A DNA stretch of 64,000 bases from Deltaproteobacteria bacterium. Lineage in GTDB: Bacteria; Myxococcota; JACPTQ01. A program made the position numbers and the translations under genes. Below, piece by piece: positions 3 to 31,069 of the stretch; the stretch's first letter is position 1; the number at the start of each line of letters is the position of its first letter. Location: assembly GCA_016192705.1 (NCBI GenBank), contig JACPTQ010000049.1, positions 2,180-66,179 of the forward strand, written 5' to 3'. The notes under the pieces are model-generated. The model was not told where the DNA came from. It ran no database searches and saw nothing but the letters and a program-made list of their open reading frames with translations.

Positions 3-518
3 GACGCCCTACGCGCAAAGAAACTCGCCGAGCGTCTGCGCCCACTCGTCAAAGCAGCGCCAGCACCGACTCAGCTCGCGACCGTGTCGCCGCTTTCACC
101 TGCGCCCGATCCCGTTTCCGCAACCGCTCCCGATCCCGTTTCCGCAACCGCTCCCGCTGCCGCTCCTGCTCCGGCTACCAAACCCGCAAAACCTGTTCGC
201 GCGAACCTGCTCGCAAGCCCCATTGCGCAAACGTTCGTCATTGCTGGTTTCGCCACGATTTCAATGGGCGCCGCCCTCCTTGTTCGCCGCACACGCGCGC
301 GCCGTGCCGCTGCAAGACTCGCCGAGGAAGAAGTGTTCACCGTTCGCTCTTTCGCGCTCGCCACGAACCACGCGCGCTGCCTCATCTGCGGCCGTGCCTT
401 CGACCTCAACGCACGCCCCGTCAACTGCGCGCGCTGCGGAACGCCGCATCACATCGAGTGCTGGCAATACAACCGCGTCTGCGCAATCTATGCCTGCGAC
501 TCGCGCAAAGCTGCGTGA
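3..518 (+). CDS. Membrane protein with C-terminal prokaryotic RING finger (Prok-RING_1-like); 5' end lies outside the window
   Basis: Frame is open from base 3. Pro/Ala linker, then a TM helix (TFVIAGFATISMGAALLV), then CxxC...CxxCxxxHHxxCW...C...C (CLICG...CARCGTPHHIECWQYNRVCAIYAC). Confidence 0.75.
   Translation, partial: DALRAKKLAERLRPLVKAAPAPTQLATVSPLSPAPDPVSATAPDPVSATAPAAAPAPATKPAKPVRANLLASPIAQTFVIAGFATISMGAALLVRRTRARRAAARLAEEEVFTVRSFALATNHARCLICGRAFDLNARPVNCARCGTPHHIECWQYNRVCAIYACDSRKAA
105..152. repeat. Perfect 24-bp tandem duplication within a hexamer-periodic (CCCGCT-like) tract
   Basis: CCCGATCCCGTTTCCGCAACCGCT x2, encoding PDPVSATA x2. Confidence 0.9.
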
Positions 519-537
519 ATTGGTGGTCGCGTCCTCG

Positions 538-570
538 CTGACCTGATCTGTCAGTCGCGCCCGTTAGTAT
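538..570 (+). promoter_or_regulatory. Putative WYL-regulator operator and promoter for the FHA-WYL genes
   Basis: Palindrome CTGAC-N7-GTCAG (538-554). TGTCAG-N10-TAGTAT spacing. AGGAGG lies upstream of TTG 594. Confidence 0.6.
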
Positions 571-593
571 CGCGCCAGAAGGAGGGCCAGAAC

Positions 594-1577
594 TTGAGCA
601 CTAGTCGTGAAACAACAGCCGCCATCCCGACCGATTGCCTCGACGAGAAAACCGAGAAACCGCCCGCCGCTCCACTCCTGGAGGTCGACGGCTTCTCTTT
701 CTTCTCGCAGATTCATCGGCCGGTTCTCGATTCGATCCGCGATCGCAACGAGGAGGGCATCCAAATCGCGGCCACCCGCGAAGACGTGACCTCTTATTAT
801 CCGCGCTTCAGGCAGGCTTCGGCGTCACCCGAGTTTCTCACCATCGGCACGAGCAACCGATGCGACCTTCAGCTACCTGACGGTGACCCCGGCATTTCGG
901 CACGACACCTGCTTGCGCGGTACACCGCGAACGACTTGCGCGACGACGCCGTCTCGCTATTCCTTCTCCACGAAGGGGCCGCTCGAAATGGGTCGGCTTC
1001 CGAGAATCGCTCATTCCTTCACGCACACAGCCGGCGGTTCGCGATCCGCACGTCCCAGACAGAAATCCTCTTCTTGCCGGTCCGGCGTCGAGCCTGGCGA
1101 ACATCTGCGGCCGACACTTGGGAGAAATTGAAGTGCGGCTGCTTGTACTTGAAGGGCCGCTGCCGGAGCTGCACGAAAATGGTGGCCGGCAACGAGCTTA
1201 CTCGCGGGCTCGTTCCCGTGGATGCGCTCGCGTGGCCATCGGCGAACGCGGGAATCGCGGCGGTGCTTAGGCTTAGCGGGGGCAATGGTGGCGTCTCTCG
1301 CGTCGTCGGAGTCCCATCGGACGCCGACGGAGTCGTAATTGGTCGGCGTTCGCTCGCAGCGATGGGCTACGACCTCCCGTCGATTTCAGAGCCGCACCTT
1401 GCGATCGTCCGAGACGGGGCGGCGGCGAAGGCACGCTATTATGCTGTCGATCTGGCGTCCCAGAACGGGTCGCTCATCAACGGGTGGGGATTCGACCAGG
1501 CGCCGCTCGACGCGAACGCACGAATTGAGCTTGGCGAATCGATCGAATTGACTTGGGAACAGAGCACATCGTCGTGA
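594..1577 (+). CDS. FHA-domain protein (two FHA-like domains around a Cys-rich linker)
   Basis: TIGTSNRCDLQL...ISARH and VIGRR...SISEPH...DLASQNGSLING. CGCLYLKGRCRSC linker. SD AGGAGG. Confidence 0.75.
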   Translation: MSTSRETTAAIPTDCLDEKTEKPPAAPLLEVDGFSFFSQIHRPVLDSIRDRNEEGIQIAATREDVTSYYPRFRQASASPEFLTIGTSNRCDLQLPDGDPGISARHLLARYTANDLRDDAVSLFLLHEGAARNGSASENRSFLHAHSRRFAIRTSQTEILFLPVRRRAWRTSAADTWEKLKCGCLYLKGRCRSCTKMVAGNELTRGLVPVDALAWPSANAGIAAVLRLSGGNGGVSRVVGVPSDADGVVIGRRSLAAMGYDLPSISEPHLAIVRDGAAAKARYYAVDLASQNGSLINGWGFDQAPLDANARIELGESIELTWEQSTSS

Positions 1578-1664
1578 GGTGTGCCGCGTAGAGGAGGTGC
1601 CCGAAAAACAGATTGCGGAGCTCAGGAATTTGCGCTTCGCAGCGTCAGATCGGAAAATTGGCGC

Positions 1665-2645
1665 GTGGCACGCGAAGCACAACTGACGCGAACGTGGCAA
1701 CTCATCACGAGCCTCGACCACCATCAGAACGGCCTAACTGTCGAGGAGCTTCGTGACGAGCTGCGCGTCACGGAGCGAACGGTGTACCGGGACCTCGCCG
1801 CGCTTCAAGAAGCCGGCTTCCCGATTTTCAGTGACGCGGGCTCAGGGGTCGCCCGAAGGCGGTTTGTCGAGGGGTATCGGTTCGTCAAGGCGCTGCCGCT
1901 CAACGTCAAAGAAGCCGCGGCACTCGCGCTTGCGGGGGACCTCGTCGGGAGCTTTCATGGGACCTTTTTCGCCGACGCGATGAAATCGGCGTTCGAAAAA
2001 GTTCGCGGAACGCTGTCGCCCGAGGCGCTCGATTACGCGCGGAGCGCGGTGGGAATCCTTGGTGTCAGCGCGACGAAGCGGCACAATTACGAGAAGAAGG
2101 CGGCGATCCTTGCGACACTGCACGAGGCGACGCGCCTGCGGCGACAGGTCGAAATCGTCTACGAGTCGTTTTCGTCGAACCGCGTGGCCAGGCGAATCGT
2201 CGACCCGTATACGCTGCACCTTCATGGCGGAACGATTTACCTGATTGCTTACTGTCACCGGCGGCGCGATGTGCGGCAGTTCGTGGTTGACCGAGTTCGA
2301 AGCGCGAAGACGCTGACCGAAACATTCGAGGTTCAAGAGGGCTACGACCCAGAGCGCCACCTCGCATCGGCGTTCAAGATGTTTCGCGGAAAGCCTTTCG
2401 TGGCGCGGATTTGCTTCGAGCGCCGCGCGGCGCGCTACCTCCGCGAGCGGACGTATCACCCATCGCAAACGATTCGTGACTTGAAGGGCGGCGCGATCGA
2501 AGTCACGCTCGAAGTTTCCGGCGTCGACCAACTCGCGGCCTGGGTCGCCTCGTTCGGCGGCGACGCGACCGTCCTCGAGCCCGACAAGCTTCGCCGCGCC
2601 GTCGTTCGGCGCGCGAAGGGGACGCTGGGGCGATATGGCAGATAA
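1665..2645 (+). CDS. HTH-WYL-WCX transcriptional regulator (PafB/PafC/YafY-like)
   Basis: wHTH LTVEELRDELRVTERTVYRDLAALQEAGFPI. WYL core RRIVDPYTL...YLIAYCHRRRDVRQFVVDRV. WCX-like tail WVASFGGDATVLEP. Start trimmed to GTG 1665. Confidence 0.9.
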   Translation: MAREAQLTRTWQLITSLDHHQNGLTVEELRDELRVTERTVYRDLAALQEAGFPIFSDAGSGVARRRFVEGYRFVKALPLNVKEAAALALAGDLVGSFHGTFFADAMKSAFEKVRGTLSPEALDYARSAVGILGVSATKRHNYEKKAAILATLHEATRLRRQVEIVYESFSSNRVARRIVDPYTLHLHGGTIYLIAYCHRRRDVRQFVVDRVRSAKTLTETFEVQEGYDPERHLASAFKMFRGKPFVARICFERRAARYLRERTYHPSQTIRDLKGGAIEVTLEVSGVDQLAAWVASFGGDATVLEPDKLRRAVVRRAKGTLGRYGR

Positions 2646-2670
2646 CACGGTTCGGCACTTGCGGTACTGA

Positions 2671-4923
2671 TCATGCGGTCGTTGCTGATGGACCGCTCAA
2701 ATCCACCTCATCGCGCACAAACCTCCATGAGCGAATCTCAAAAAAACGTTCTGCGAACAGTCGCCGTAAGGCAGAGACCTTTGCCGAGTCAACGAAATGG
2801 GTGCGGTCTGCAATGACGACGAGCTTTGACTTGGCGCGACTCATCGCAACGTTAACCAACCGGTCGCCTGTTTCACCGCTAAAGAGGCGACCAACCTTTG
2901 TTCCGTCACATTCAACGAGATCAATCACGACGACGTCGAATTCGCTCCCCTGAAATGCGTGAACAGTCCCGATTGAAACACGGCGTTCGGATTCAGCCCC
3001 AGCGGGTTGCGACACGAGGTCCTGGAGGAGAAGGCGAAGACGTGCGACGTGTGCGCGATACGGCGCAATGACGCCAATCCGAGCGGTCTTGTTCAAGCGA
3101 CAATAGGCTCGCGTGAGATTCGCTGAAAACTGCGCTGTTCCGGCGTTAACCCGAGAACCACCGGCTGTCATCAGCACCCCAGATCCAGGCATGCCTCCTA
3201 CGTCGATGAGCACCGCAGCCTTTCCAGAACCGGGTGGCAAATCGACCGCCCTGCGACGCTCAGGATCGCCCATGTTCACATCTGATTTTAGGCGCCCGCC
3301 GTAAAAGACGCTGTTCACGCAGGCGGCGATTTCGGGGGCCATGCGCCTTTGATGGACGAGCATCGCGTAGTCGGAGCGCTCCGATGGGCCAGCCAACTCA
3401 GAAGAGAAGCCTCGATAAAAGAATGCATCGCGATGCAGCCATCGCGCGGCAAGTTCCCCCTGCGAAATGGCAATTGGACCGAGCTGCTTGAAGTCCCCCG
3501 CGAGAATGAGGCCTCGAGACGCACAGGTCGAAACAGCCACGGCGCTCGCAGCAGAGACCATGCTGCTTTCGTCGACGACCGCGATGTCGAACTGGCCATT
3601 CGCGATGCCGCTGTCGCTCACGGCCTGAGCGATGGTCGTAAACACGACTCGAGACTTTTGGAGATAGCACGAGACAACGTCTTTCAGCAGTCTTTCGAGA
3701 GTCGCGATTCGGCTGTTGACTTCTGCGCGAGACGAAGCATCACTTCGCGGCAATCGATCGCGCTCGATCCGCTTTTGCTTTAGCTCACCGAGGATTCCCT
3801 GCCTTTCGGCACGATACCGAAACAACCCGGGGTATGCGAACACATCGGGATCCCTGGGATACCCGTAACGGACAACCAACCCCTCCTGAAGAAGCCCCTC
3901 CAGCACGGCGCGAGCAGAGCGCTCGAACGCCTTTACCGTCGCGACCGCGAGTCGATCCACGGCAACGTTGGCGGTTGCGACACCGATCACTCGCAACCCC
4001 GAGGTGACGAGTGTGGCGATAACCCGCCCGAGCGTATGAGTCTTTCCCGTTCCGGGCGGTCCCCAGATCACAAAGGCCGCGGGCTGCTGATGCATCCGAA
4101 GTACCGCTGCGGATTGAGCGTCATCGAGGTCAATCAATACGGGTTCTGATGAGATTGGTAGCGCCGGCGCCGAGGCGCTGCGCTCGACAATCGCTTTCGC
4201 CAGAAACGAAGTCGACGGGTCGATCCGTGCGATCGCGTCTCGGAGACGTTCAAGCAGCCAGTCGTGATTAGGCTCGAGCGCAATGGGCCTCTCGAACGCG
4301 ATACTCAAGTCGAGCCGTTTCTTACAGGCGACCCATACTGTATTGTCAGCTTCATCTATGCTCACCACGATGGCGTCGAACGACGCGTTGGACGTTGTCC
4401 TCAGCAGCGCCGGCGCGCCTTCGGTGACAGGTACGGGCTCGTCGGTGTCGCGCTCGCTTAACATGAATTCGAAAACAAACGGATACTCATCGGCACTCAG
4501 CTGCTTTCGAAGTCGCCCGCCCAAGATTGGAAGCCTCAGCTTCTTGCTCTGATCGCGCACGGCCCGGCGTTCCAACGATATGGCCTCGCACATCTCTTTC
4601 AGCTGGTCTGCGAGGGTACCGGAAGCCGGATGAGTGGCTTCCGGGCCCAGTGACAGGCGTCGCTCTGGGTCTTCAAGTTTCGCCATCAGCTCAGGAAAAT
4701 CGCGGTTGATGGTGTGCCACTGGGGTTTCCATTTGTGTAAACCACACCTCACGAAATACCTTGGATTAGCGGAGATCATGCTCCCCACCCGGCTCGCCCG
4801 TGATCCCGTACCGGCTCCCATAACGACGAATGCGATTTGCGTGAAGGTCAGAGGCACGCAGCGGTCGCTCCTCTGGTACCACATCTTCAGGATGGATATG
4901 AGGAGGTCGGAATCAGTCATCAT
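2671..4923 (-). CDS. SF1 (UPF1/DNA2-like, AAA_11/AAA_12) helicase with N-terminal putative winged helix
   Basis: Motifs GPPGTGKT, VDESSM, GDFKQLGP, QRRM, TVHAFQGSE, NVAMSRAK. Start is ATG 4929, 4923 or 4920. Confidence 0.88.
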   Translation of the reverse strand: MMTDSDLLISILKMWYQRSDRCVPLTFTQIAFVVMGAGTGSRASRVGSMISANPRYFVRCGLHKWKPQWHTINRDFPELMAKLEDPERRLSLGPEATHPASGTLADQLKEMCEAISLERRAVRDQSKKLRLPILGGRLRKQLSADEYPFVFEFMLSERDTDEPVPVTEGAPALLRTTSNASFDAIVVSIDEADNTVWVACKKRLDLSIAFERPIALEPNHDWLLERLRDAIARIDPSTSFLAKAIVERSASAPALPISSEPVLIDLDDAQSAAVLRMHQQPAAFVIWGPPGTGKTHTLGRVIATLVTSGLRVIGVATANVAVDRLAVATVKAFERSARAVLEGLLQEGLVVRYGYPRDPDVFAYPGLFRYRAERQGILGELKQKRIERDRLPRSDASSRAEVNSRIATLERLLKDVVSCYLQKSRVVFTTIAQAVSDSGIANGQFDIAVVDESSMVSAASAVAVSTCASRGLILAGDFKQLGPIAISQGELAARWLHRDAFFYRGFSSELAGPSERSDYAMLVHQRRMAPEIAACVNSVFYGGRLKSDVNMGDPERRRAVDLPPGSGKAAVLIDVGGMPGSGVLMTAGGSRVNAGTAQFSANLTRAYCRLNKTARIGVIAPYRAHVARLRLLLQDLVSQPAGAESERRVSIGTVHAFQGSEFDVVVIDLVECDGTKVGRLFSGETGDRLVNVAMSRAKSKLVVIADRTHFVDSAKVSALRRLFAERFFEIRSWRFVRDEVDLSGPSATTA

Positions 4924-4930
4924 CGTCATC

Positions 4931-4963
4931 CAGATACACCCGGGACCTGACAGAACAGGTCAG
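4931..4963 (-). promoter_or_regulatory. Second copy of the putative WYL operator, upstream of the helicase
   Basis: Minus strand CTGACCTGTTCTGTCAG is 16/17 identical to 538-554 and is followed by N10-TATCTG. Confidence 0.6.
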
Positions 4964-5100: not shown

Positions 5101-7146
5101 TCAAGCGCCGCCGACAACTTTCATGGCGGCTGTTTTCGGGTCCCCATAGAAGATTGGGTCCACGTGCTCCATGATGTCGGCGCTCACGTCGAGGAAGTTC
5201 CGCTTGTTCTCGATCGGGATGAGGGCGCGTTTAGCACCGTTGTCCATTGCGACTTGGAGCGGCTCCGTGAGCGAGCGGATCGGCTTGATGTTCCCCTGGA
5301 CGCTCATGTCTCCGAGGATGAGCAGACCGGGGCTGACGGATGCCTTTCTCAACGCGGAGTAGCTGGCAACGAAGAATGCCACGCCAGGCTCGGCCTCAAC
5401 GCGGTTTGCGAGCAGGTCAATAACCTCGACGTGAAGGTCGGAAACATCGAGGTCGCGCGCGATGCCGAGGTCCGTCTTCTTGGCGTGCAGGAAGCTGAAG
5501 GCTCGCTGGAGGGATTCCTTCATCACACCGGCGACGCCGCCGGCCAGCTTGAGTTTGCCCGTGCCGTTCGAGACTGAGATTTCCACGCGGAAGAGACCGA
5601 CGGTGCCGTCCGACGTCACGCCCGCACTGTAAACCGTACCGGGGGAGATCGGATCGGTCGAGATGAGATCGCGCCCGCCCTGCTCGGGGACGCCGACGAA
5701 TCTCTCCTCTCCGGTTTCCTGAAGCGTGTAGCTGAACGACGTGTGATAGTACTCAAATGAGCCCATTTTCTTGAGTTGTTCCTTCACGCGCCTTCGCCCT
5801 TCGAGTGCAAGCTCAAGGATCTCGCCGAGTTCATTCGGCGTGACGACCCCATGCGGGAACAGGATTTTCACGAGGCCCGACACCGTCTTGCGGACGGCCT
5901 TGCGGTCGCGGGCGTTGAGGTGCGCGCCAAGCGAGAAGTGGCGATCGATGGTCTCAGTGAAGTTGTGCTTCCGCATTTCGCGAAGCGCCTCGGCGAGGTA
6001 GTCGACGACGAACCCGTAGTGGTTCGTGAAAAGGTCGTTCCGCATCTTCGGGATCTCCCAGCCCGGGAGGTAGAAGTGTATTCGGTCGATAAAGGCCATG
6101 TCGTCGCGGATGATGTCCGGCATCGGCGCGAACAGGTGTCCCGTCTGAACCATCACGTCGACGGGCTGGTTCGTGTTGCCGAACATCGCGATGCTCGCGT
6201 CGCCAGAAACCGCCTCCTGGCCACGCTGGAAGGTGCCGGATTCGCAGTAGGTTTTCATAGTCGTGATGACCTCCTTGGGCATTTTCTGAAGGTCGGCGAC
6301 TTCGTCGAATCCGACGACGTCCCAGATTTGAACCATGCCCTTCTGCCGGCCGGACAAGTGGCCGAAAAGGTTCGCGACCGTCGTGCCGCCCGTGAGCAGC
6401 GCTGAGTACGGCGACACTTCCTGCACCACGTAGCTCTTGCCCGTGCCGCGAGGGCCAAGCTCGACGAGGTTGTAGTTGTGCTCGGCGAGCGGGATAAGGC
6501 GCACCAGAAAGAGGAGCTTGAGGCGCCGCGACATGTCGCCCGGCTCGTACCCCATGCTTCGCATGATGAGGTCGAGCCACTCGTCCGTCGTGAGCTCGCC
6601 CCGGACGCGACGGTACTCTTCGAGGTCGAACGTCGCGATCTGGATGGGCGTGAGCTTGTCGATCCAGAAAGGATTCTTTCCACCGGCCTCTTCGTCGGAC
6701 TGGAATCGCAGATCGAGCTGGGTCCACACGCCGCCCATGAGCAGGCGCTCGTAGTCGCGCACGTACTGCGTTGGAACGTGGAGAAACTTGTTTCCGAAGT
6801 TTACCGCCTCGGCCCAGTAGTCGGAGTCGACCAGGCGGACCTTCACCTTGTCGATGAACGTGTACCTCCCGTTCTCCTTGACCTTGCTCTGCGCCTTCCC
6901 CGACTCGTCGGGTCGGATGTAATTGTTGGCGAGCGTGTCGTTGACGACCTGCAACCCCATCTGGATCGCCACCTCATCAGACGACGCGCAGTACTTTCCG
7001 AGCAGATACTCGAGCACGAAGACAGGGACGTTCGCACCGACCTTCACCTTGCGGACGAGATCCTTGCGAACGACCTTCCCCGCGAAGAGGCGGTTGACCT
7101 TGTCGTCGAGTGCGTCGCGTATCGGGGTTCCGTTGCTCATGTTCAT
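5101..7146 (-). CDS. brxL: BREX Lon-related protein BrxL
   Basis: GKVVRKDLV...NVPVFVLEYLLGKYC, NLVELGPRGTGKS, VVGFDEVA, AFIDRIHFYLPGWEIPK, Lon-like C-terminus. ATG overlaps the pglZ stop (TGATG). Confidence 0.95.
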   Translation of the reverse strand: MNMSNGTPIRDALDDKVNRLFAGKVVRKDLVRKVKVGANVPVFVLEYLLGKYCASSDEVAIQMGLQVVNDTLANNYIRPDESGKAQSKVKENGRYTFIDKVKVRLVDSDYWAEAVNFGNKFLHVPTQYVRDYERLLMGGVWTQLDLRFQSDEEAGGKNPFWIDKLTPIQIATFDLEEYRRVRGELTTDEWLDLIMRSMGYEPGDMSRRLKLLFLVRLIPLAEHNYNLVELGPRGTGKSYVVQEVSPYSALLTGGTTVANLFGHLSGRQKGMVQIWDVVGFDEVADLQKMPKEVITTMKTYCESGTFQRGQEAVSGDASIAMFGNTNQPVDVMVQTGHLFAPMPDIIRDDMAFIDRIHFYLPGWEIPKMRNDLFTNHYGFVVDYLAEALREMRKHNFTETIDRHFSLGAHLNARDRKAVRKTVSGLVKILFPHGVVTPNELGEILELALEGRRRVKEQLKKMGSFEYYHTSFSYTLQETGEERFVGVPEQGGRDLISTDPISPGTVYSAGVTSDGTVGLFRVEISVSNGTGKLKLAGGVAGVMKESLQRAFSFLHAKKTDLGIARDLDVSDLHVEVIDLLANRVEAEPGVAFFVASYSALRKASVSPGLLILGDMSVQGNIKPIRSLTEPLQVAMDNGAKRALIPIENKRNFLDVSADIMEHVDPIFYGDPKTAAMKVVGGA

Positions 7147-9740
7147 CACACTCCAAGTCGTACCGGGATGTCCGCCGGCGATCGATACAGCTCTGCGTCC
7201 GTTGCCGGGTCCTGCACCACGACACGGAGCGCCGGCCCGCTCTCGTCGCTCAAGAGAAACGCGACCGTCGTGGGCTTCCCGGGCTGCAGCATTACGCACC
7301 CCGTCGCGCGATCGAGCTCGGCCTCGATCGCCATCCCTACGCTGCCCACCTGCCTGCCTGATGCGGTGAGCAGCGGGCGCACGAGCAGCCCGCCAACAGA
7401 CGTGCTTCCGAGATTGATTTGCTCTGTGAATGTAAGCGAGACGCTGAAGATACGGTTGGAAACCACGTTGGGAAGGCCGCTTACGGTAACCGGACCAGAT
7501 GCGAGCTGAACCCCCCTCTCAGCCCTCAAGCGAACGGTCAGTACCGGAACAATTGCCTCCTGCAGCGACAGCCCACCGTGGTGGAATGCGAGGTCTCCGC
7601 CGGCCTTGAAGACACCGCTGCCAATGGGGAAAACAAACTCGAGATTCGACGCATAGCCCAGCGTCGATGCTTCCACTCTAATGCATCCAGCCGGAGTGGT
7701 CCCACCGCGGCCAATCCAGCACCGACGGTGAAGCTCGACCTCGTGCCCGCCGGGTTTCTCGATCCGCATCGACTCGTCGCGATCGGCGGGGAAGAACAGA
7801 TGGCCGTGATCCGCGGAGACGACCGAGTGCTCAACGCCAGCCGCTGCGAGTCTCCGGATAGCGCGCGCGAGGTTGTCGATCACGGTGTCCATCACCTGGC
7901 GGGCCTGATGGGAAAACCCGGTCTCGCCGGCGTGATCGATTTCCTGCGACTTGACGACGATGACCTGCGCGCCCTCGATCTTCCTCGCGAGTTTCGACGC
8001 CTGTAGGCTGAGGAGTTCGTCGAGGCCGACGTGGCTGAGCTTAGGGACCTTCGCAGAAGCGAACTTCTTTCGTGCCGATGAGTCCGGAAGGAATGCATCT
8101 TCAATGCGCGCGCCGAGTACGCCATCCTGCTCCACGACGCTGAAACTCGCGGACGCTCCCGGCTGTAAAGCCGCCATTCCAACTGTTGTGATGCTCGGCA
8201 GCGCGCAGATGGCGTGCCGCGTACTGACCTCGGCGCTCTTCGGCAAGCGCTCGGCCAACTCTACGCCCATTTCGAATCGCATAGCGTCAACCAGGAAGTA
8301 CGCGAGGGGCTTCGGGCGGTCTGCAACTGCCTCCCTATAGACGCAAGTCTGGTGCAGCACTCCAGGAGTGGCCCACTTGGCCTTCGCGAGAGCACGAGTG
8401 AAGCCCTCTGCCATCGCATGGCACGCGTCTTCGTACGCTCGGCGGACGACACCAAGGGGGCGCTCCTCCGGTTCTTCCTCAAGCTTCGTGATCAGGACTT
8501 CGAGCCGCCGCTGCAATTGGTCGATCCGATACCAACCGTCCTTCGACGCGTACGCATCGATCCACGATACGGGGCCATTGCCGATCTTCGCCATCGCGGC
8601 GCGAACTGCGACTATTGCGCCGCCAAGTTCGGCCATCCGGCGGCACGTTTCCCATTGCGCCTTCCGCCCGACATCGTGGTCCAGCCAGAAGCTGTTCTCG
8701 CGTTCGGTGACGATTGCCAGCGCCTCGTCGAACCCCTGCTCGGCGATGAGCGCTCCGCAATGGGAGAGGAGCGCGCGCTCCTCAAAACGGAAAGTGTCGA
8801 TCGAGCCGAGCGCGTCGGCTGCTATCGGCGCATTCCGAAGCCCGAGCTCCTTCTCGACATGGTCCGCCAGGTTCGGGTAGGCGCTCGCGAAGCTCGTTCG
8901 GAGACGACGGGCCAACTCTCGGACGGCGCTTTCATTGTCCTTCGTCTTCGGCGCGGGCACGGCGGCAACGCTCGGAGGAGGGGGGCAGCGCAGGTCCGTC
9001 CGGAACTCGCCCGCGAGGACATAGCGCAAGGTGATAGCCCGCACCTTCGAGATCGACGCATTCTCGGGAAGCTCCGCACCGAGGCGCGAGCGAATCAGCT
9101 TGATGAGCTCGCGCGTCGCCGCCTTGGTTTCGATGGCGGCGTCGCGGGAGTCACTGGCAAGCCACGCACCGAGGAGCCCATCGTTGCCGGCGGTGTCGTG
9201 GAAGACGGACTTCAAGATCGACGGCGGCTCCGTCGATGTCGTGTCAGCTGCAGCACGAGCAAGGTCCTCGTAAGACACCTTACGGTCGACCGGCAGCATT
9301 TCGTCGACAACCCCCAGCGTGTACTTCTGGAGGAGTACGTTCTTAGCCAACCGCTTGAGTTGGGGCTCCCAGGTCGTGCCGGCCTTCTCGATCTCCATGA
9401 GCACGGAGCCGCGCCGATCGCGTTCACGGCCTGGGATGAAAAGTAGAGTTGGTTCGGGGGAATCGGCAGCGGCAACCATCTCCACCGCGGTCCGCACTTC
9501 GAAAAACGACCCCGAAAACTCGGCGATCCAGAACGCCTTCCCCGCCGCCTCAACTTCCGTAAGGCCGACTGAAATCCGCGCGTCGTCTTGTGCTGCCAGC
9601 TTTCGACTCCGTTCCGTTGCCTCAAGCTCGCCGATGAACGCCTCAAACTCCCGCCTCGGGTCGTACCAAACAACGATCTTGTTCGCCTTCAACTTATCGG
9701 AGAGCTGCTTAGCGACGTAATCGTGGAGGGGATGCGTCAT
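7146..9740 (-). CDS. pglZ: BREX phosphatase PglZ
   Basis: VDAMRFEMG, LPSITTVGMAAL, VSADHGH, FHHGGLSLQEAIVP. ATG 9740 overlaps the upstream stop (ATGA). Confidence 0.95.
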   Translation of the reverse strand: MTHPLHDYVAKQLSDKLKANKIVVWYDPRREFEAFIGELEATERSRKLAAQDDARISVGLTEVEAAGKAFWIAEFSGSFFEVRTAVEMVAAADSPEPTLLFIPGRERDRRGSVLMEIEKAGTTWEPQLKRLAKNVLLQKYTLGVVDEMLPVDRKVSYEDLARAAADTTSTEPPSILKSVFHDTAGNDGLLGAWLASDSRDAAIETKAATRELIKLIRSRLGAELPENASISKVRAITLRYVLAGEFRTDLRCPPPPSVAAVPAPKTKDNESAVRELARRLRTSFASAYPNLADHVEKELGLRNAPIAADALGSIDTFRFEERALLSHCGALIAEQGFDEALAIVTERENSFWLDHDVGRKAQWETCRRMAELGGAIVAVRAAMAKIGNGPVSWIDAYASKDGWYRIDQLQRRLEVLITKLEEEPEERPLGVVRRAYEDACHAMAEGFTRALAKAKWATPGVLHQTCVYREAVADRPKPLAYFLVDAMRFEMGVELAERLPKSAEVSTRHAICALPSITTVGMAALQPGASASFSVVEQDGVLGARIEDAFLPDSSARKKFASAKVPKLSHVGLDELLSLQASKLARKIEGAQVIVVKSQEIDHAGETGFSHQARQVMDTVIDNLARAIRRLAAAGVEHSVVSADHGHLFFPADRDESMRIEKPGGHEVELHRRCWIGRGGTTPAGCIRVEASTLGYASNLEFVFPIGSGVFKAGGDLAFHHGGLSLQEAIVPVLTVRLRAERGVQLASGPVTVSGLPNVVSNRIFSVSLTFTEQINLGSTSVGGLLVRPLLTASGRQVGSVGMAIEAELDRATGCVMLQPGKPTTVAFLLSDESGPALRVVVQDPATDAELYRSPADIPVRLGV

Positions 9741-10807
9741 GAAGTTCCCATGCTGTTGGCAAGCTCCAGGTATCGTGCGGCAATCCACGCTATTCTGGGG
9801 GGGCCGCCAATTCCACGCCCCGTTGGATGGTTGTCTACGATCTGTTGGGCAAGCTTAGGAAGAAGAGACGCCAGCAAGAGATCAGAAGATGTCGGGTCCA
9901 GGGTGTATCGGTCATGGCCTGCTGCAACAAGTTTCTCCGACAAGATAGCTAGCGCTTGCTGCGCGCGCGCGTCGACGTCTCTTGCCTCTCCAACCAATTC
10001 TTCGACCTGCTGTGGGGTGGTGATTCCTAATTGTTGAAGCTCGTCGAAACACTGCCCAGCATGGTTGGTCAGCTCCACACTTGGAAACCACTTGCGCAAT
10101 CGGGCTACGAAATCGTAGACGTCCTCGAAAGCCCCCGTCTGCTCCCTTAATCGCCGTTCCGTAGCGGCAAGCAATTGACTGATGATGCCATCGCCTGTGC
10201 GACTGAGGTGGCCCAGCGACCCAAGGAGTTCTTGCTCTGGTTCCGAGAGCCTTCCGCTCAGCGGTTTGTAACCGAGATCATGTTCTATTTCGTTCCACAC
10301 ATGGGACATCATGCTGCAGACTTGGACTTCGCAAGGAGTGTTGGCAAGATTCGCGTACGTACCAACCAGTTCGTCGGGCCGCAAATACACCTCGGAGTGG
10401 GCCGCACGGTAGAAACTGCCCGGATTTGCCGCATGCTTGTCCTTGCGATCAACATCAACACCTCCGCCAGCGTTGCCGCAGAAACGTTTCATGATCTCTT
10501 GGACCACCTTCACTTCGTCGTTCTTGTCATACGTTGCCACCCGAACGGCAGCCAGGTCGCGAACAGCATTGAACACTGACTCGACGGTTTTAATGAACCC
10601 CGGCGTCGCTTTCTCGATCAAACGAATCTTGCCGTCGAAGCTCTTGGAACTTTTGGCACGCGAGGTGACCTGTGCGCGAATCGCGTTTCCTTCCACCACT
10701 TCTGAACGACAGATGTCCGCAACGCGGGCGCTGAGTTTCAAATACCGGTCATACTCACGTTCATATCTAGAGACGGCCTCGGCAATTATCGTATCTAAGT
10801 TCGGCAT
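9737..10807 (-). CDS. RelA/SpoT-family small alarmone synthetase-like protein with C-terminal extension
   Basis: RAKSSKSFDGK, DLAAVRV, YRAAH, CEVQV, HVWNEIEHDLGYK. No hydrolase domain. Confidence 0.88.
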   Translation of the reverse strand: MPNLDTIIAEAVSRYEREYDRYLKLSARVADICRSEVVEGNAIRAQVTSRAKSSKSFDGKIRLIEKATPGFIKTVESVFNAVRDLAAVRVATYDKNDEVKVVQEIMKRFCGNAGGGVDVDRKDKHAANPGSFYRAAHSEVYLRPDELVGTYANLANTPCEVQVCSMMSHVWNEIEHDLGYKPLSGRLSEPEQELLGSLGHLSRTGDGIISQLLAATERRLREQTGAFEDVYDFVARLRKWFPSVELTNHAGQCFDELQQLGITTPQQVEELVGEARDVDARAQQALAILSEKLVAAGHDRYTLDPTSSDLLLASLLPKLAQQIVDNHPTGRGIGGPPRIAWIAARYLELANSMGTS

Positions 10808-10810
10808 TTC

Positions 10811-12883
10811 TTACGCCTCCGCGTCTAACGGTCGTCGACGAGAGCCGGCCTTTTTCGCGAGACGTCCAACCTCCGTTTGGAGGATGCTCGCGAGTGCTGC
10901 TTTTACGCCGGGTGAGCTGCGCTCCCGGACCAGCTCGTTGATCGACCGCATTGGTGTTTTGCGAGCCGTCCACTTTCCGTTGCTGTCCTCGGCCCAGAAC
11001 ACGTCTTCCAGTCCGTGCGCGATCGCAAGACTGCGATCTGAAGCGCACCTAGGAACGACGCGCTCGGGCCAGAGGTGCATCGCCAGGTGCGCCCAGTCGT
11101 ACTTGCCTTCGCAGAGCGCGTTCCAGGTGGACTTCAGCGCCTTCTGCCAGGGCTTGTTCTGCGGGACGAGCCGCCAGAGCGGCGCGAAGTTGATGATGAC
11201 GCCGTCGTCCAAGGTCGGCTTCCAAAGCGGCGCGACGCGCTTCACCTCGTCGAGGAAGGCGCGGAGCTCGTCGACGAACGTCTCCTGTGCAGCGAGAACC
11301 TTCCGCTGGGCGGCGGTCGCGCCGTCACGTAGCTCGCTCATGAGCGACTCGAGGCGGCGCTCCTCGTGCGCGAGCTTCGGTGCTGCGTAGTCGTTCTGCA
11401 CGCGGAAGAGCGTGTCTTTGCTGAAGGCGTGGATGTAGAGCCACACCGAGTAGCTCGCCGAGGGCGTCGCAAGCTGCCAGTAGATGGGCGCCTTGCGACG
11501 GCTCTTCGAGTACATCCTGATATGCAGTGGGAAGAACTCCCTGGCCAGCCACCCACGGAGGTTCTCAGGCGCCTCGACGCGAACGCGCTCGGCGACCGCG
11601 CGGGTGCGCGCCGCGAGATCGGCGGCGTGGCCTTGGTCGTCGACGAGGATGTCGGGCCGTTCCGCCGGCTCTTCGCCCTCGGGGTACATGCCCGGAGAGC
11701 GCAAAGGCAACGCCTGGAAGGGCTCGGGCTCGAGTGGCACCGGACGCTCGCCCGTCGCGAGGCGGGGGTCGAACCGTGCGAAGGCGGCGCCGACGAGCCA
11801 CGAACCTAGAGTCTCGACCCCAGCGCCACTCGACACCCCCGACACGTCATCATCACCCAAGTCATCGCCGTCATCGTTGTCTTCATCCGGTGAGGACTCC
11901 TCCCTCTCAGCAGGCGCATCTCCAGTGGAGACAAGGCTTGCAGGGTCCTCCGGGCGGATGCCGTACAGACTGAACCCCGCCTGGTCGATTTCCCTCTGAA
12001 GCGTCTCCAACTCGCGAACGATGGCGTCAGGATTCAGTCCCGCGACCTTCTCATTCAATCCGCTCGGCAGAATGAACGCATGCGAGGTCTCATTGACCGT
12101 GTCGAGCATTCGCCTGAGCGACCAGGCACGGCGCGCGAGACGTGCGAACGTCGCAACGTCGCTCGTCGAAAGGTTCGCCAGCGGTGTCTTCTGAATGACG
12201 CCCACTTCGTAGGAGCGGGCAACCCCTCCGCGGCCAGACGGCTCGGCGGCAGCGAGTTGAAACTCGATGAGCGACCGAAACACTTGACTGTTGGCAAGGG
12301 CTCCAAGGGCGAGCAAAAGCTCAACGTCGTCGTTCTCGACGATAACTGCAGGTCCCTTCGAGCCGAAGATGCAACCGGCCGGCATCACGCGCATCGAAAG
12401 GTCGCTCTTGGTCCGAAGCGTCCAGGTGAGGCCAGGGCGAAGGTAGAGCTCCCGGCTCGGAACAATCGCAAACTTGTACTCTCGAGTGGTAACTCGCTCA
12501 GCGAGCAACTCGCTCCCGTCAGTACCCCAGTTGAGAAGCATATGCGGGTCTGCGTAGAACGGTGACCACCGACCGCCCTTCACGTGCGGTGCCCATTTGC
12601 TACCCGCACATTCCCACGCCAGTCGCAGGAAACGGCCGTCGTCATTGGAGTTGACGCCTCGTTTCGCAACGCGACCGCCTGCTTCGAATCGAGAGAACTT
12701 GGCGAAGGCTGCCCGAAGAGTCTCGCTCACCCAGTAGGCGAACGGAGAACCGGGCACGCTGCGAAACGTCGTCGGATTCACTTCGAAGATTCGGCGATCG
12801 GCTCCTGCAGCACTAATCGCAGCGCGGAGCGCACCATCCTTGTCGTGCACCTCTTCGAGGACGCGGATGAACACCGTGCTCAC
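10811..12883 (-). CDS. pglX: PglX C-terminal half (target recognition and C-terminal domains)
   Basis: VPGSPFAYWVS, HIRMYSKSRRKAPIYWQL, LDDGVIINFAPL, YDWAHLAMHLWPERV. GTG start overlaps the upstream TGA. SD AAGGAG. Confidence 0.85.
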   Translation of the reverse strand: MSTVFIRVLEEVHDKDGALRAAISAAGADRRIFEVNPTTFRSVPGSPFAYWVSETLRAAFAKFSRFEAGGRVAKRGVNSNDDGRFLRLAWECAGSKWAPHVKGGRWSPFYADPHMLLNWGTDGSELLAERVTTREYKFAIVPSRELYLRPGLTWTLRTKSDLSMRVMPAGCIFGSKGPAVIVENDDVELLLALGALANSQVFRSLIEFQLAAAEPSGRGGVARSYEVGVIQKTPLANLSTSDVATFARLARRAWSLRRMLDTVNETSHAFILPSGLNEKVAGLNPDAIVRELETLQREIDQAGFSLYGIRPEDPASLVSTGDAPAEREESSPDEDNDDGDDLGDDDVSGVSSGAGVETLGSWLVGAAFARFDPRLATGERPVPLEPEPFQALPLRSPGMYPEGEEPAERPDILVDDQGHAADLAARTRAVAERVRVEAPENLRGWLAREFFPLHIRMYSKSRRKAPIYWQLATPSASYSVWLYIHAFSKDTLFRVQNDYAAPKLAHEERRLESLMSELRDGATAAQRKVLAAQETFVDELRAFLDEVKRVAPLWKPTLDDGVIINFAPLWRLVPQNKPWQKALKSTWNALCEGKYDWAHLAMHLWPERVVPRCASDRSLAIAHGLEDVFWAEDSNGKWTARKTPMRSINELVRERSSPGVKAALASILQTEVGRLAKKAGSRRRPLDAEA

Positions 12884-14718: not shown

Positions 14719-14731
14719 TCGCGCCTAGCCC

Positions 14732-17700: not shown

Positions 17701-18161
17701 TGTTGAAGAGGCGCCGGTACTCGTCCTCGAAACGCTGGAGCTGTCCCTTCTCTTCGAGCGCGATTTCGAGCTCGGAGAGGTCGAGGTCCTTCGCGTAGCC
17801 GAGGCTTTGGAGAAAGAGTCCGTACATGATCTCGGTGAGCGTCTGATTCCCGCTGCGGATACCGCGATCCGTGGAGACGTCGAAGATTCGCGATCGAAAG
17901 CCCGAGCATCTTGGCGAAGCTCGACTTGCCGGATCCGAAGAACCCCGAGACCCAGATCGCGATCCCCTCGTGCGGTTTGTTCGGGGTCTCACCATAAGCT
18001 TCGAAGATGTTCGTGTAGTGGGACCGAATCGCATCGGTGACCACGTACTCGCTGATCTCGTCGCGGAGGATCTCCTCGTCGGTCTGGTCGACCTTGATGA
18101 CTTCTTCGATCCGTCGATGGATGTCGTTCGCGAAGAGGGCTTTGATGTGCTGTGTGGTCAT
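14732..18161 (-). pseudogene. brxC: BREX P-loop ATPase BrxC, frameshifted near 17885-17888
   Basis: The N-terminus (IEEVIKV...SEYVVT...WVSGFFGSGKSSFAKMLG) is in one frame. The rest (IFDVSTDRG...VVDEVGQF...VTSQE...) is in another. Confidence 0.85.
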
Positions 18162-18175
18162 GGCTGGTGTCCCCA

Positions 18176-18751
18176 TCAGAAGATCTTCGGGCGGTAGTTG
18201 TGCTCCGGATCGAGCGCGCCCATGAAGCGAAGGCCCGCAGCTCCATCGAGGTCGCCCGGATAGAAAAGAATTGTGGGCACGTGGACCTGCCCCTTGAGCT
18301 GCTCGAGGAGCGAGAAGGTTCGATAGACGGGAAAGAGCGCTCCCGCCCGCAGAACGAACACGACGTCTCGGAGTGGATCGGGATCGTCCGGCATCCTCGC
18401 CGCAACGAGCTCAACGAGCGGTTTGTACTCGGAGAGCACCGAGTGGACAGTCTCGACGATGATCTCCACGCCTTGCTCGTGCTCAGCGGTGAACCAGTCC
18501 TCGAGCGGCCGCTGTGAACGCATCGCTTCGTCGAGACACTCAGCGAGCGAAATCCGTCGGATGCGCTTGCCCTTCTGAGTCAGCCGCGTTTCGAGCATCG
18601 TGACCTGCTTGCGAAGCTCGAACTCCTCCTCGGGGTCGTAGCGGAACAGCGCGTACGGCATGTCGTGGTACGCGCTGATTCGCTTGCGCGGGTCGGCCAG
18701 CTCGAGCACAGGCTCGAGGACGTTCTTGATGCGCAGTTCGAGGTCGCTCAA
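18176..18751 (-). CDS. brxB: BREX protein BrxB (DUF1788-like)
   Basis: YALFRYDPEEEF, GALFPVYRT, PTILFYPG...LRFMG...NYRPKIF. Position between brxA and brxC. Confidence 0.9.
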   Translation of the reverse strand: MSDLELRIKNVLEPVLELADPRKRISAYHDMPYALFRYDPEEEFELRKQVTMLETRLTQKGKRIRRISLAECLDEAMRSQRPLEDWFTAEHEQGVEIIVETVHSVLSEYKPLVELVAARMPDDPDPLRDVVFVLRAGALFPVYRTFSLLEQLKGQVHVPTILFYPGDLDGAAGLRFMGALDPEHNYRPKIF

Positions 18752-20369: not shown

Positions 20370-20636
20370 GTGGAACGTCTGCGAGCGGATCGCGTTTTAA
20401 GGGCTGTAGGGCGCCGGTTCGCGGAGCTACGAGCGAGGCGCGGCCTAACACAGGAAACGCTTGCAGAGCGGATCGGCGTGTCACTCAAGTATCTTCAGAG
20501 AATTGAAGCGGGGCGCGAGAACCTCACGCTCAAGTCGCTTGTCGAGCTTGCAAACACATTTCGCGTCAAGGTCGACGATCTCTTTCGCCGTCCGGTGTCG
20601 CTTGCGGTGCGCCGCGGTAGACCCCGAAAACGCTAA
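20370..20636 (+). CDS. XRE/Cro-C1 HTH regulator (controller-protein-like)
   Basis: LRARRGLTQETLAERIGVSLKYLQRIEAGRENLTLKSLVELANTF. Confidence 0.9.
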   Translation: MERLRADRVLRAVGRRFAELRARRGLTQETLAERIGVSLKYLQRIEAGRENLTLKSLVELANTFRVKVDDLFRRPVSLAVRRGRPRKR

Positions 20637-20820
20637 CAGCAACATTGAAGGGTTTTCTCCGACGCGTAAAACGGCCGGTGGGTATGTTTTTGAGCGGCCG
20701 CTGGAATTCAAGCACCGGGAGCGCGCGCTTGAAAAGTCGCCGGCTACGAAAAAACGCCCCCCCGGGGGTGGGGTTGAAGAGCCGCGCAAATCCGCGTATC
20801 GATTGGGCGCGAGGTGAGAG

Positions 20821-26146: not shown

Positions 26147-26151
26147 TATCT

Positions 26152-27681: not shown

Positions 27682-27712
27682 GGGGCCGAACCTCTTGGCG
27701 CCTGCGTCGGCA

Positions 27713-31064: not shown

Positions 31065-31069
31065 AAAAA

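Follow-up and report, generated by a model that had tools for sequence, protein, structure and literature searches.

Candidate WYL operators at a fixed distance from the -10 element on four paralogous defence islands of a deltaproteobacterial genome

In a deltaproteobacterial genome a 17-base palindrome, CTGACC-N4-YTGTCAG, recurs on four paralogous islands, and every copy ends 10 nt upstream of a -10-like element. The sequence itself shows the sites and their constant register, as well as gene content, homologies and conservation in other genomes. The 17-base sites resemble binding sites of a regulator that appears to activate about 20 promoters over the four islands. On balance, and with moderate confidence, we take them to be the operator of the HTH-WYL-WCX protein that is encoded once on each island, acting as a homodimeric, ligand-gated activator of the same kind as PafBC, DriD and SiwR.

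Candidate operators and their spacing to the -10 element

The only two matches to CTGAC-N7-GTCAG in the window (the whole 64-kb stretch of DNA that was analysed) are O1 and O2, see Table 1. On average 0.06 matches are expected, and one of 100 dinucleotide shuffles reached two. When oriented towards their genes the two sites are identical at 16 of 17 positions. This confirms the first-pass annotation, made from the sequence alone, which had described two matching 17-bp sites, each 10 nt before a -10-like hexamer. O1 is located 20 nt past the stop codon of the upstream RING gene; after the TAGTAT follow GGAGGG (581-586) and a TTG start at 594, and transcription is predicted to begin near A577. 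For the helicase, the minus strand after TATCTG reads G-ATG(4929)-ACG-ATG(4923)-ATG(4920), and the predicted transcription start is 4924/4923, with a leader of 0-1 nt. The leaderless mRNA from ATG 4923 proposed earlier is plausible: its A is 8 nt past the -10, and there is no space for a ribosome-binding site. The public gene call (750 aa) also corresponds to ATG 4923; from ATG 4929 the protein would have 752 aa. The low matrix score of O2 is caused by its weak -10.

Table 1. Features of the island part of the window, in order of position.
Feature	Position	Strand	Evidence or remark
Membrane protein gene, 3' part (171 codons)	3..518	+	Pfam Prok-RING_1 8.7e-09
Operator O1, CTGACCTGATCTGTCAG	538-554	+	Top PWM score, 48.3; predicted -39 to -23 of the FHA-WYL promoter
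FHA-WYL -10-like hexamer TAGTAT	565-570	+	Exactly 10 nt (555-564) past O1
Double-FHA protein, 327 aa	594..1577	+	Pfam FHA 5.7e-11
HTH-WYL-WCX transcription factor, 326 aa	1665..2645 (GTG 1665)	+	Pfam WYL 2.7e-21, WCX 5.3e-19, HTH_11 1.2e-11
SF1 UPF1/IGHMBP2-like helicase, 750 aa	2671..4923 (ATG 4923)	-	AAA_12 1.8e-27, AAA_11 6.6e-22
Helicase -10-like hexamer TATCTG	4936-4931	-	10 nt (4946-4937) past O2; lacks the final T
Operator O2, CTGACCTGTTCTGTCAG	4963-4947	-	PWM score 26.1, lowest among the perfect sites
Type 1 BREX: brxL, pglZ, RelA/SpoT-like insert, pglX in two ORFs, brxC, brxA	5101..19533	-	PADLOC
Conserved island gene, 207 aa, no family	20481..21104	-	Beyond the cargo; homologues at the ends of contigs C72 and C63
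DUF3987 protein and Prim-Pol protein, replication-type island genes	24488..27804	-	Pfam 6.2e-95 and 1.1e-23
Tyrosine integrase of the island	29758..30888	+	Phage_integrase 1e-24
tRNA-Arg(acg) (30990-31065), island end	30971..31065	-	Repeat at the other end

Over the genome (5,210,217 bases) the same pattern has 14 perfect matches, all of which fit the asymmetric form CTGACC-N4-YTGTCAG. Six simulated genomes (first-order Markov copies) contained 0-9 relaxed matches (mean 3.8), and strict matches in none of the six. The motif is therefore not common at random positions, an objection that the first-pass annotation had raised against its own proposal. When the pattern is extended by N10-TA, as had been suggested there for a genome scan, TA follows after exactly 10 nt at 12 of the 14 perfect sites, while the other two have GA and CA.

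Further, a 33-nt matrix scan of the 5.2 Mb gave 20 positions above 12 bits, all of them inside islands and none outside. With 14 perfect and 6 near-perfect copies the genome has 20 candidate operators, and the spacing to the -10 is 10 nt at each of them. The -10 has the form TAnnnT at 13 sites and nAnnnT at 19, and the proximal half-site is TGTCAG at 18, TGACAG at one and CGTCAG at one. The sites fall into seven promoter classes: small lipoprotein, 490-aa lipoprotein, RING, FHA, helicase, and the cargo of the islands on contigs C63 and C72. The flanks of these classes are unrelated, and all they have in common is the operator, one T that follows it and the -10; the consensus of the seven independent classes is CTGACC-N4-YTGTCAG-N10-nAnnnT.

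The arrangement is also seen in other genomes of the phylum. Around WYL homologues that share 29-39% identity with the protein studied here (29 loci, 106,280 nt in all), GAC-N7-GTC-N12-TAnnnT has 8 matches, while 200 simulations gave a mean of 0.14 and a maximum of 2. Seven of the eight are distinct, as L019 and L020, from two species in a single genus, have the same printed site and the same sequence after it. The operator ends 10 nt upstream of the -10 in all eight. Among the genes that follow are the WYL genes themselves, cas3 (L051), cas4-cas1 (L135) and an RNase T-like exonuclease (L136).

The islands, their core and their cargo

The genome is metagenome-assembled and binned, with a completeness of 96.65% and a contamination of 0.82%. 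The source DNA comes from four runs of one groundwater study. Named relatives of its seryl-tRNA synthetase share only about 58% identity and belong to several phyla, while the 9-13 Mb genomes assigned to its phylum, together with Atlas leads, suggest Myxococcota. There are four, perhaps five, paralogous tRNA-integrated islands; the four are found on separate contigs of the binned assembly, and it is likely that they reside in one cell. The island studied here ends at the tRNA on one side; its other end is marked by a second copy of bases 30971-31038 at C78:17295-17361 (94% over 69 bp).

Common to the islands is a core of a small lipoprotein, a 490-aa lipoprotein, a membrane Prok-RING protein, a double-FHA protein and the HTH-WYL-WCX regulator, and every core gene has an operator copy of its own. 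The FHA, WYL and helicase genes had been taken for a compact three-gene unit. This view does not hold, as FHA and WYL sit in a five-to-six-gene core that is present in four islands, and the helicase is island-specific cargo whose relatives show no link to WYL or FHA in 80 loci. In 80 metagenome loci (661,134 nt) with helicase relatives, mostly distant ones as they were gathered with generic helicase motifs, no relative of the WYL, FHA, RING or 490-aa proteins was found (tblastn, 1e-4); three of the loci have brxL upstream.

The operator (C57:1435) and start (C57:1489) of the RING gene are both located beyond the window. Its layout, as read from the translated full paralogue, is a lipoprotein-type signal, a periplasmic region, a Pro/Ala linker, one TM helix and a cytoplasmic Prok-RING_1 finger. 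The double-FHA protein has a C-terminal FHA domain (residues 247-314), an FHA-like N-terminal half and a CxC...CxxC cluster, and its paralogues are 90-91% identical. For residues 1-240 the Atlas gives a lead, and a lead only, to FHA clusters (score 0.92); the 490-aa lipoprotein has a similar lead to BNR/Asp-box-like clusters (0.94).

Relatives of the FHA protein were searched for in several ways. An alignment scan of genome contigs gave 82 pattern matches and no relatives, and a word-indexed search found two proteins among 7765 candidates, both from the source genome. With HMMER, 43 of 1.84 billion representatives scored at E<=0.001; below 1e-10 there was nothing but the cluster of the query itself, and the best other hits are distant (24-33% identical, about 320-370 aa). 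Among 41 related genomes a single one (G036) has a full-length match, at 28% identity, and the neighbourhood of that match contains no WYL gene and no motif. A literature search found no paper on the combination of WYL, FHA, prokaryotic RING finger and lipoprotein.

The cargo differs between islands: the helicase and BREX here, type I R-M and DISARM-like helicases on others. The BREX system is of type 1, with all five of brxA, brxC, pglX, pglZ and brxL matched by PADLOC (BrxL at 2.1e-285, and also PglZ, the split PglX, BrxC and BrxA). Neither the matrix scan nor a separate check found an operator in the BREX operon, and the type I R-M cargo is also without one.

The helicase has an uncharacterised N-terminal region of about 260 aa. 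Its match to the IGHMBP2 family (6.1e-41) is below the cut-off, and the match to PADLOC MkoA (4.5e-59) covers model positions 532-1088 of 1112, that is the C-terminal half only. Mokosh is defined by a full-length MkoA with a PLD nuclease as partner or fusion. Here the helicase core is shared; however, the N-terminal half of MkoA is missing, no PLD partner is adjacent, and no PLD domain is reported for the helicase or the scanned neighbours.

The WYL protein and the proposed activation

In the conserved core the WYL protein is the only DNA-binding candidate, and all three domains of the HTH-WYL-WCX architecture score above Pfam cut-offs. In two of the four copies the open frame extends upstream to GTG 1581; the paralogues, 94-96% identical, all start with MAREAQ. 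Among PDB sequences the protein is closest to PafBC (7.4e-22), PafB (4e-13) and PafC (1.2e-12), while the matches to DriD (about 1e-06), CapW (4.3e-05) and BrxR (about 5e-04) are weaker. These similarities are in agreement with the earlier choice of the local WYL protein as candidate regulator. Its residues R38 and R42 align with R46/R50 of PafB and R37/R41 of DriD, which contact two guanines of the half-site. Five of the eight ssDNA contacts of DriD (Y168, S172, R178, Y192 and R204) are identical, W206 aligns with F, a conservative change, and R189 and R207 are not conserved. Judged by this alignment, the WYL domain may bind a nucleic-acid or nucleotide ligand. A complex prediction of the WYL and FHA proteins scored 0.01, which counts neither for nor against an interaction.

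At both window sites a sigma-70 -35/-10 pair is absent, as is any TTGACA-like hexamer 16-18 nt from the -10. The sole predicted sigma-70 pair within 1-5400 is internal to the helicase gene, and the -35 position coincides with the variable centre of the operator. The PafBC promoter form given in the first-pass annotation was right: PMC8635444 reports tGTCgg(N10)tA(N3)T, with a -26 element that spans -28 to -23 and substitutes for the -35. Both window sites fit this form in register and lack a -35, and the 10-nt spacing of a PafBC-type promoter is found at all 20 sites. In addition, the sites here and in the other genomes share with DriD- and SiwR-like promoters a palindrome over the -35/-26 region at a constant distance from the -10.

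From this arrangement we infer that the WYL protein binds the sites; the sign of the regulation, the ligand, the transcription starts and an anti-phage role of the helicase are inferred as well. Each winged helix would read one GTC triplet, and as the triplets are 10 bp apart both face the same side of the DNA helix. The dimer would occupy -39 to -23 of promoters with a -10 (nAnnnT) and without a -35, with the promoter-proximal TGTCAG placed where the -26 element of PafBC lies. The ligand is probably single-stranded nucleic acid from DNA damage or phage replication, and after its binding by the WYL domain the dimer would recruit or adapt the housekeeping RNA polymerase. Because the four WYL proteins are nearly identical, a joint response of all islands is expected, with about 20 promoters taking part: those of both lipoproteins, of the membrane RING protein, of the FHA-WYL operon and of selected cargo. 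Induction of the FHA-WYL operon would be a positive feedback, and the mRNA of the UPF1-like helicase would have little or no leader. The regulon would leave out BREX and type I R-M, two systems that depend on constant methylation and have no site.

Alternative readings and related systems

An activator is not the only role that the WYL protein could have at this operator. It might instead block RNA polymerase at -10-only promoters and be released by the ligand, which we consider somewhat unlikely. If such promoters are active here, occlusion by a dimer at -39 to -23 could bring about repression, and the missing -35 is not decisive if the lineage tolerates them; -10-only promoters are known from actinobacteria. 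Autoregulation is simpler for a repressor, and a self-dependent promoter requires some basal expression. Three further points count against the activator reading: the final T, usually essential, is missing from the helicase -10 (TATCTG), two of the eight DriD contacts are lost, and the PafBC heterodimer uses one HTH on DNA while the sites here are full palindromes. The defence-island WYL proteins studied so far, BrxR (PMC9122601) and CapW (bioRxiv 10.1101/2022.01.04.474952), are repressors; they have the same architecture, palindromic operators and BREX or other defence systems as neighbours, and PADLOC labels our protein as CRISPR-associated WYL (2e-45). However, the site overlaps the -10 for CapW (bioRxiv 10.1101/2022.01.04.474952) and lies downstream of it for BrxR (PMC9122601), while 10 nt separate the end of the site from the downstream -10 at all 20 positions here and all eight elsewhere, a rigid register that steric occlusion does not need. 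BrxR, with two boxes in one island, 11-bp arms and a 5-bp spacer, controls BREX itself, whereas the adjacent BREX operon here has no operator. The similarity to BrxR and CapW is also far weaker than that to PafBC.

Since WYL binding to the motif is predicted and the regulator candidates were drawn from the island core, some other factor, such as a host regulator or an alternative sigma, might recognise the motif while the WYL protein targets something else. This is quite improbable: all 20 sites are in islands that each encode a WYL protein, with none elsewhere in 5.2 Mb, and WYL homologues in other genomes accompany the same motif. A wHTH dimer with both guanine-reading arginines conserved is well matched to a palindrome whose GTC triplets are 10 bp apart, and the distances from the half-sites to the -10 (21 and 10-11 nt) match the -35/-10 pair of no sigma type known to us. 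Even less credible is that the 17-mer, an inverted repeat with 5-bp arms and a 7-nt loop that is found 20 nt past the RING stop codon, works through RNA or DNA structure, be it as a hairpin, a terminator or a recombination site, instead of serving as a protein operator. Its folding energies are ordinary (z = 0.30, -1.08, -1.70), neither window site has a U-tract or a terminator call, and no Rfam family matches at E<=1. Conserved, asymmetric flanks and a constant spacing to both the -10 and the start codon indicate a promoter.

The preferred reading, activation by the island WYL protein, can be compared with known WYL activators. With PafBC of mycobacteria and other actinobacteria the locus shares an identical TGTC(A/G)G-N10-TAnnnT geometry without a -35, the best match among solved structures and the GTC-reading arginines. 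However, PafBC is a PafB/PafC heterodimer or fusion that acts by sigma adaptation on about 150 chromosomal DNA-damage genes, while here each island has a single gene, the palindrome is full, and the regulon is limited to mobile islands and has no repair genes; the system is thus not PafBC proper. DriD (Caulobacter) and SiwR (M. smegmatis) are homodimeric activators with palindromes located over the -35 and -10 positions or between them, at a constant distance from the -10 (PMC13004042; PMC10693628). Like the WYL protein as we read it, both are homodimers encoded by one gene and have ssDNA as effector, and most of the ssDNA contacts of DriD are conserved here. The pseudo-palindrome of DriD has a 7-bp spacer, SiwR has a 19-bp palindrome between -35 and -10, and in both the -35 is weak or absent. 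The similarity to DriD is nevertheless low, its half-sites are CG-rich with an AT-rich centre, and the targets of both are chromosomal damage-response genes. Two papers give the DriD half-site in different orientations (ATACGAC(X)7GTCGTAT in PMC13004042, C1-G2-T3-C4 in PMC10853764), so the central base pair may or may not have the same polarity as here. DdaA of Moraxellaceae is, in the available text of PMC12392091, a WYL activator with a palindromic motif also before R-M and CRISPR-Cas genes, and through it DNA damage raises immunity. In contrast to the protein studied here, that text describes a chromosomal master regulator replacing SOS, with the motif CGWCA-N5-TGWCG (5-bp spacer), which is neither island-borne nor multi-copy and has no FHA, RING or lipoprotein partners.

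According to the current view, defence-island WYL proteins (BrxR, CapW) are repressors, and WYL activators (PafBC, DriD, SiwR, DdaA) are chromosomal DNA-damage regulators. The present locus may connect these two groups, with a WYL protein that is carried by an island and sites that show the rigid geometry of activators. The promoter layout would be one already known from DNA-damage activators, and the island-borne, four-copy regulon a new variation on it. With the WYL gene copied on four mobile islands, separate defence islands would join one inducible regulon, and the motif in the same register before cas3 and cas4-cas1 elsewhere hints that a clade of CRISPR- or defence-linked WYL factors acts alike. 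The prediction is sharp enough to be tested, as it names a 17-mer, two arginines, a 10-nt register and two transcription starts.

The core further connects WYL to FHA, a prokaryotic RING finger and lipoproteins, and could form an alarm circuit from envelope to promoter, an idea that we regard as speculative and unlikely as it stands. The lipoproteins and the Prok-RING protein would sense a surface event, e.g. phage adsorption or DNA injection, the double-FHA protein would relay it by phosphothreonine binding, and WYL would integrate it with its nucleic-acid ligand. One infection would then induce the second-line effectors of all four islands, with BREX and type I R-M constitutive. If true, the whole clade of defence-linked WYL proteins in the phylum would be sigma-adapting activators, not repressors. 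A conceptual likeness is found in Myxococcus xanthus, probably of the same phylum, where the available part of PMC11506125 also ties a defence island (CBASS/CRISPR) to a membrane-spanning protein; there the control is by the transmembrane anti-sigma and ECF sigma pair DdvA/DdvS, in place of the WYL factor seen here.

Operators in the window and in the genome

The first-pass annotation had described two 17-mers, each placed 10 nt before a TA, and direct reading of the window confirms both: O1 upstream of the FHA gene and O2 upstream of the helicase gene. They are the only two matches to CTGAC-N7-GTCAG in the window, while 100 dinucleotide shuffles of it give a mean of 0.06 matches and reach two only once.

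The window was found in four DNA runs only, all from one groundwater study, and the genome is therefore treated as metagenome-assembled (5.21 Mb in 88 contigs, 62% G+C, completeness 96.65%, contamination 0.82%). The scan of this genome that was proposed with the motif supports it. A relaxed palindrome occurs in 14 copies, all 14 of the asymmetric form CTGACC-N4-YTGTCAG; six first-order Markov genomes contain 0-9 relaxed matches (mean 3.8), and the strict form is absent from all six. With a 33-nt matrix built on the 14 sites and a threshold of 12 bits we find 20 positions in the whole genome: these 14 and six more with one or two mismatches. Every one of the 20 falls within a small set of island loci, on contigs C3, C13, C57 (whose positions 2180-66179 are the window), C63, C72 and C78; no site is found elsewhere, and no DNA-repair gene bears one. 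The earlier view of a compact regulon, in which the WYL protein activates a three-gene inducible module (FHA, WYL and helicase) beside BREX, was thus wrong in scope, as about 20 promoters over four mobile islands carry the site.

The sites represent seven promoter classes with unrelated flanks: small lipoprotein, 490-aa lipoprotein, RING, FHA, helicase, C63 cargo and C72 cargo. Common to them is nothing but the operator (preferably preceded by G), one T after it, and a hexamer nAGnaT. The spacing between operator and hexamer is 10 nt at every one of the 20 sites; the hexamer reads TAnnnT at 13 and nAnnnT at 19, the sole exception being the TATCTG of the helicase. When the hexamer is set at -12 to -7 the operator spans -39 to -23, with the -35 position inside its variable centre. 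CTGACC is then 21 nt and YTGTCA 11 nt from the -10, so that neither half-site is usable as a -35, and a sigma-70 scan at O1 and O2 finds no -35/-10 pair.

In the promoters of core genes GGAGG is present and the start lies 20-25 nt beyond the hexamer; two cargo genes have no GGAGG. O1 is followed after its 10 nt by TAGTAT (565-570), GGAGGG (581-586) and TTG 594, the start of a 327-aa ORF. Downstream of O2, on the minus strand, come 10 nt, TATCTG (4936-4931), G, ATG 4929, ACG, ATG 4923 and ATG 4920. The A of ATG 4923 is the eighth base past the hexamer, and in the RING gene of C63 the A of the ATG is the seventh: a layout that would be expected of leaderless mRNAs. A leaderless helicase mRNA from ATG 4923 had been called probable, and this still seems right in kind; the public gene call (750 aa) matches the same ATG. 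The predicted transcription starts are near 577 (+) for O1 and at 4924/4923 (-) for O2.

Shared core and variable cargo of the islands

By DNA comparison the islands have in common a core of 5.4-6.0 kb with 83-92% identity. It starts with a divergently transcribed small lipoprotein, followed by a 490-aa lipoprotein without Pfam or NCBIfam family, for which there is an Atlas lead towards BNR/Asp-box-like clusters. The product of the third gene (393-409 aa) combines a lipoprotein-type signal and a periplasmic part with a single TM helix and, in the cytoplasm, a Prok-RING_1 finger; the FHA and WYL proteins come fourth and fifth. Every core gene is present in four copies, provided that C78 joins C57 and C13 joins C72; where C13 and C72 overlap, their operator spacers are not quite alike (one base differs), which leaves room for a fifth copy. 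Identity between paralogues is 90-91% for FHA and 94-96% for WYL, whose HTH is almost invariant. All four WYL paralogues share the N-terminus MAREAQ, counted from the codon that matches GTG 1665, and only two of them have an open frame upstream of it; 1665 is therefore taken as the start.

Prok-RING_1 fingers were reportedly described in a comparative study in 2011. Full-text literature searches did not find this combination of FHA, RING and lipoprotein genes with WYL, and among 1.84 billion representatives the FHA protein has distant relatives only. In the C3 and C63 islands a Phd/YefM antitoxin gene follows the WYL gene, with a ParE toxin gene next in C3; the island of the window has neither.

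Features of the window, of other island loci (L001, L004, L005 and L006, from C3, C63, C72 and C78) and of loci around WYL homologues in other genomes (L051, L135, L136); bare coordinates refer to the window
Feature	Position	Strand	Remark
Prok-RING_1 protein, end part	3-518	+	
O1	538-554	+	CTGACCTGATCTGTCAG
FHA protein	594-1577	+	
HTH_11-WYL-WCX protein	1581/1665-2645	+	
SF1 helicase	2671-4929	-	AAA_11 + AAA_12 domains
O2	4963-4947	-	CTGACCTGTTCTGTCAG, as read on minus strand
Type 1 BREX	5101-19533	-	brxL, pglZ, pglX in two ORFs, brxC, brxA
RelA/SpoT-domain protein	9737-10807	-	356 aa; Pfam 1e-09; between pglX and pglZ
pglX, two ORFs	10811-12883 and 12880-14718	-	4-nt overlap
207-aa gene, no family	20481-21104	-	beyond cargo
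Tyrosine integrase	29758-30888		adjoins island end at tRNA-Arg(acg)
69-bp direct repeat	30971-31038 and C78:17295-17361 (L006 5296-5362)		94% identity
tRNA-Arg(acg)	30990-31065		island end
Phd/YefM, C3	L001 9411-9686	-	
ParE, C3	L001 9144-9407	-	
Phd/YefM, C63	L004 9651-9926	+	
Second membrane Prok-RING protein and DrmD-like SNF2/NOV_C helicase	L004 10244-14993	+	C63 cargo
HEPN_Swt1 with AAA_16/BrxC_BrxD-like ATPase	L005 2189-5696	-	C72 cargo; convergent on WYL
Operator, 46-codon hydrophobic ORF, 1783-aa DEAD/MZB helicase, SNF2 helicase	L005 5548-13973	+	C72 cargo; DISARM-like
Region with site directly upstream of cas3	L051 10798-13564		type I-E-like locus
Region with site directly before cas4-cas1	L135 5086-6794		ATG 7 nt past hexamer
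Region with site directly before RNase T-like exonuclease	L136 3358-4018		

The cargo differs between islands: helicase and BREX in C57, type I R-M in C3, and in C63 and C72 the genes of the table. The second Prok-RING protein of C63 is small (182 aa) and has the leaderless layout, with an operator upstream. BREX and type I R-M have no operator, which we interpret as fitting constitutive methylation with inducible helicase-type effectors alongside.

Within BREX the two pglX ORFs each have a PADLOC PglX model of their own (PDLC02532 and PDLC02526), which suggests a natural split form and not a frameshift. The RelA/SpoT-domain protein has no PADLOC match, and could act as a toxin or as a small accessory resembling alarmone synthetases.

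The 69-bp repeat includes the 3' part of tRNA-Arg(acg), and its two copies bound an integrative island of about 36 kb, making C78 and C57 neighbours. This element also bears Prim-Pol and DUF3987 genes. The core of C13 adjoins a tyrosine integrase and tRNA-Arg(ccg), that of C63 a serine recombinase and tRNA-His. Homologues of the 207-aa gene (70-79% protein identity) stand at the extreme ends of C72 and C63, where these contigs break; as the gene is conserved beyond the cargo in three islands, the variable defence cargo occupies a hotspot between conserved flanks.

The relatives of the helicase, alike also in the N-terminal region, are proteins of about 720 aa from metagenomes (31-36% identity over 94-99% of the query); those bearing a source name are annotated as hypothetical. 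From 80 metagenome loci retrieved by generic helicase motifs, WYL, FHA, RING and 490-aa relatives are all absent, and in three brxL lies upstream on the same strand. The helicase is therefore variable cargo, sometimes behind BREX, and not a fixed partner of FHA-WYL. It matches an IGHMBP2-family model under cut-off (6.1e-41). We do not assign it to Mokosh: the match to PADLOC MkoA (4.5e-59) covers only the C-terminal half of the model.

The WYL protein as predicted activator

The WYL protein (326 aa) is the sole DNA-binding candidate of the core. In sequence, the solved structures closest to it are those of PafBC (7.4e-22), PafB (4e-13) and PafC (1.2e-12), followed more weakly by DriD (about 1e-06), CapW (4.3e-05) and BrxR (about 5e-04). 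The PafBC study (PMC8635444) gives the promoter consensus as tGTCgg(N10)tA(N3)T, without a -35, and places the PafB HTH at -28 to -23, where R46 and R50 read both guanines of the GTC triplet. In HMMER alignments R38 and R42 of the WYL protein correspond to these residues and to R37 and R41 of DriD, as named in PMC10853764. The operator has one GTC triplet in each half-site, with centres 10 bp apart, and its proximal TGTCAG falls exactly at the -26 position of PafBC. The PafBC-like promoter form proposed earlier is thus right in kind.

Judged from this layout, the predicted operator would probably serve activation. Strict spacing ahead of the -10 is needed by a factor that has to contact RNA polymerase, while a WYL protein that repressed by occlusion, the less favoured reading, would not demand it. 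Further, the repressor sites described in two reports lie over or past the -10, unlike the island operators: those of CapW overlap it (bioRxiv 10.1101/2022.01.04.474952), and the BrxR box, with 11-bp arms and a 5-bp spacer, is downstream of it (PMC9122601). Homodimeric WYL proteins on palindromes are described for SiwR, an activator whose 19-bp palindrome lies between -35 and -10 and for which the -26 region is essential (PMC10693628), and for DriD, with a pseudo-palindrome and a 7-bp spacer (PMC13004042). The half-site polarity of DriD is printed as opposite in two papers, ATACGAC(X)7GTCGTAT (PMC13004042) versus C1-G2-T3-C4 with the didA site ATACGTCC... (PMC10853764), which limits a base-by-base comparison with the island operator.

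The ligand is likely a single-stranded nucleic acid. In a pairwise alignment of low identity, five ssDNA contacts of DriD (Y168, S172, R178, Y192 and R204) are identical in the WYL protein, W206 is replaced by F, and R189 and R207 are not conserved.

The same motif in other genomes

The 40 neighbour genomes in the collection share only the phylum, and none is a close relative. A WYL match at E<=1e-20 is present in 134 of 401 genomes (400 of the phylum and our own); beyond our own genome the best matches have 33-39% identity. The surroundings of the best matches were collected as 29 loci with 106,280 nt in total, and in these GAC-N7-GTC-N12-TAnnnT occurs 8 times; 200 simulations average 0.14 and reach 2 at most. 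Loci L019 and L020 belong to two species of one genus and do not differ in the site or in the downstream sequence listed with it, leaving 7 distinct sites. All 8 matches read (G/C)YGACC-N5-YGTC(A/T)(G/C), the same word as the island operator. One of the 29 loci, L027, is from a genome marked as unpublished (G195); it has no match, and none of the conclusions depends on it.

In L019/L020, L021 and L024 the site is upstream of the WYL homologue itself, and in L134 it precedes an HTH_PafC-type ORF. The sites at cas3, cas4-cas1 and the exonuclease have the same operator register, with WYL homologues nearby.
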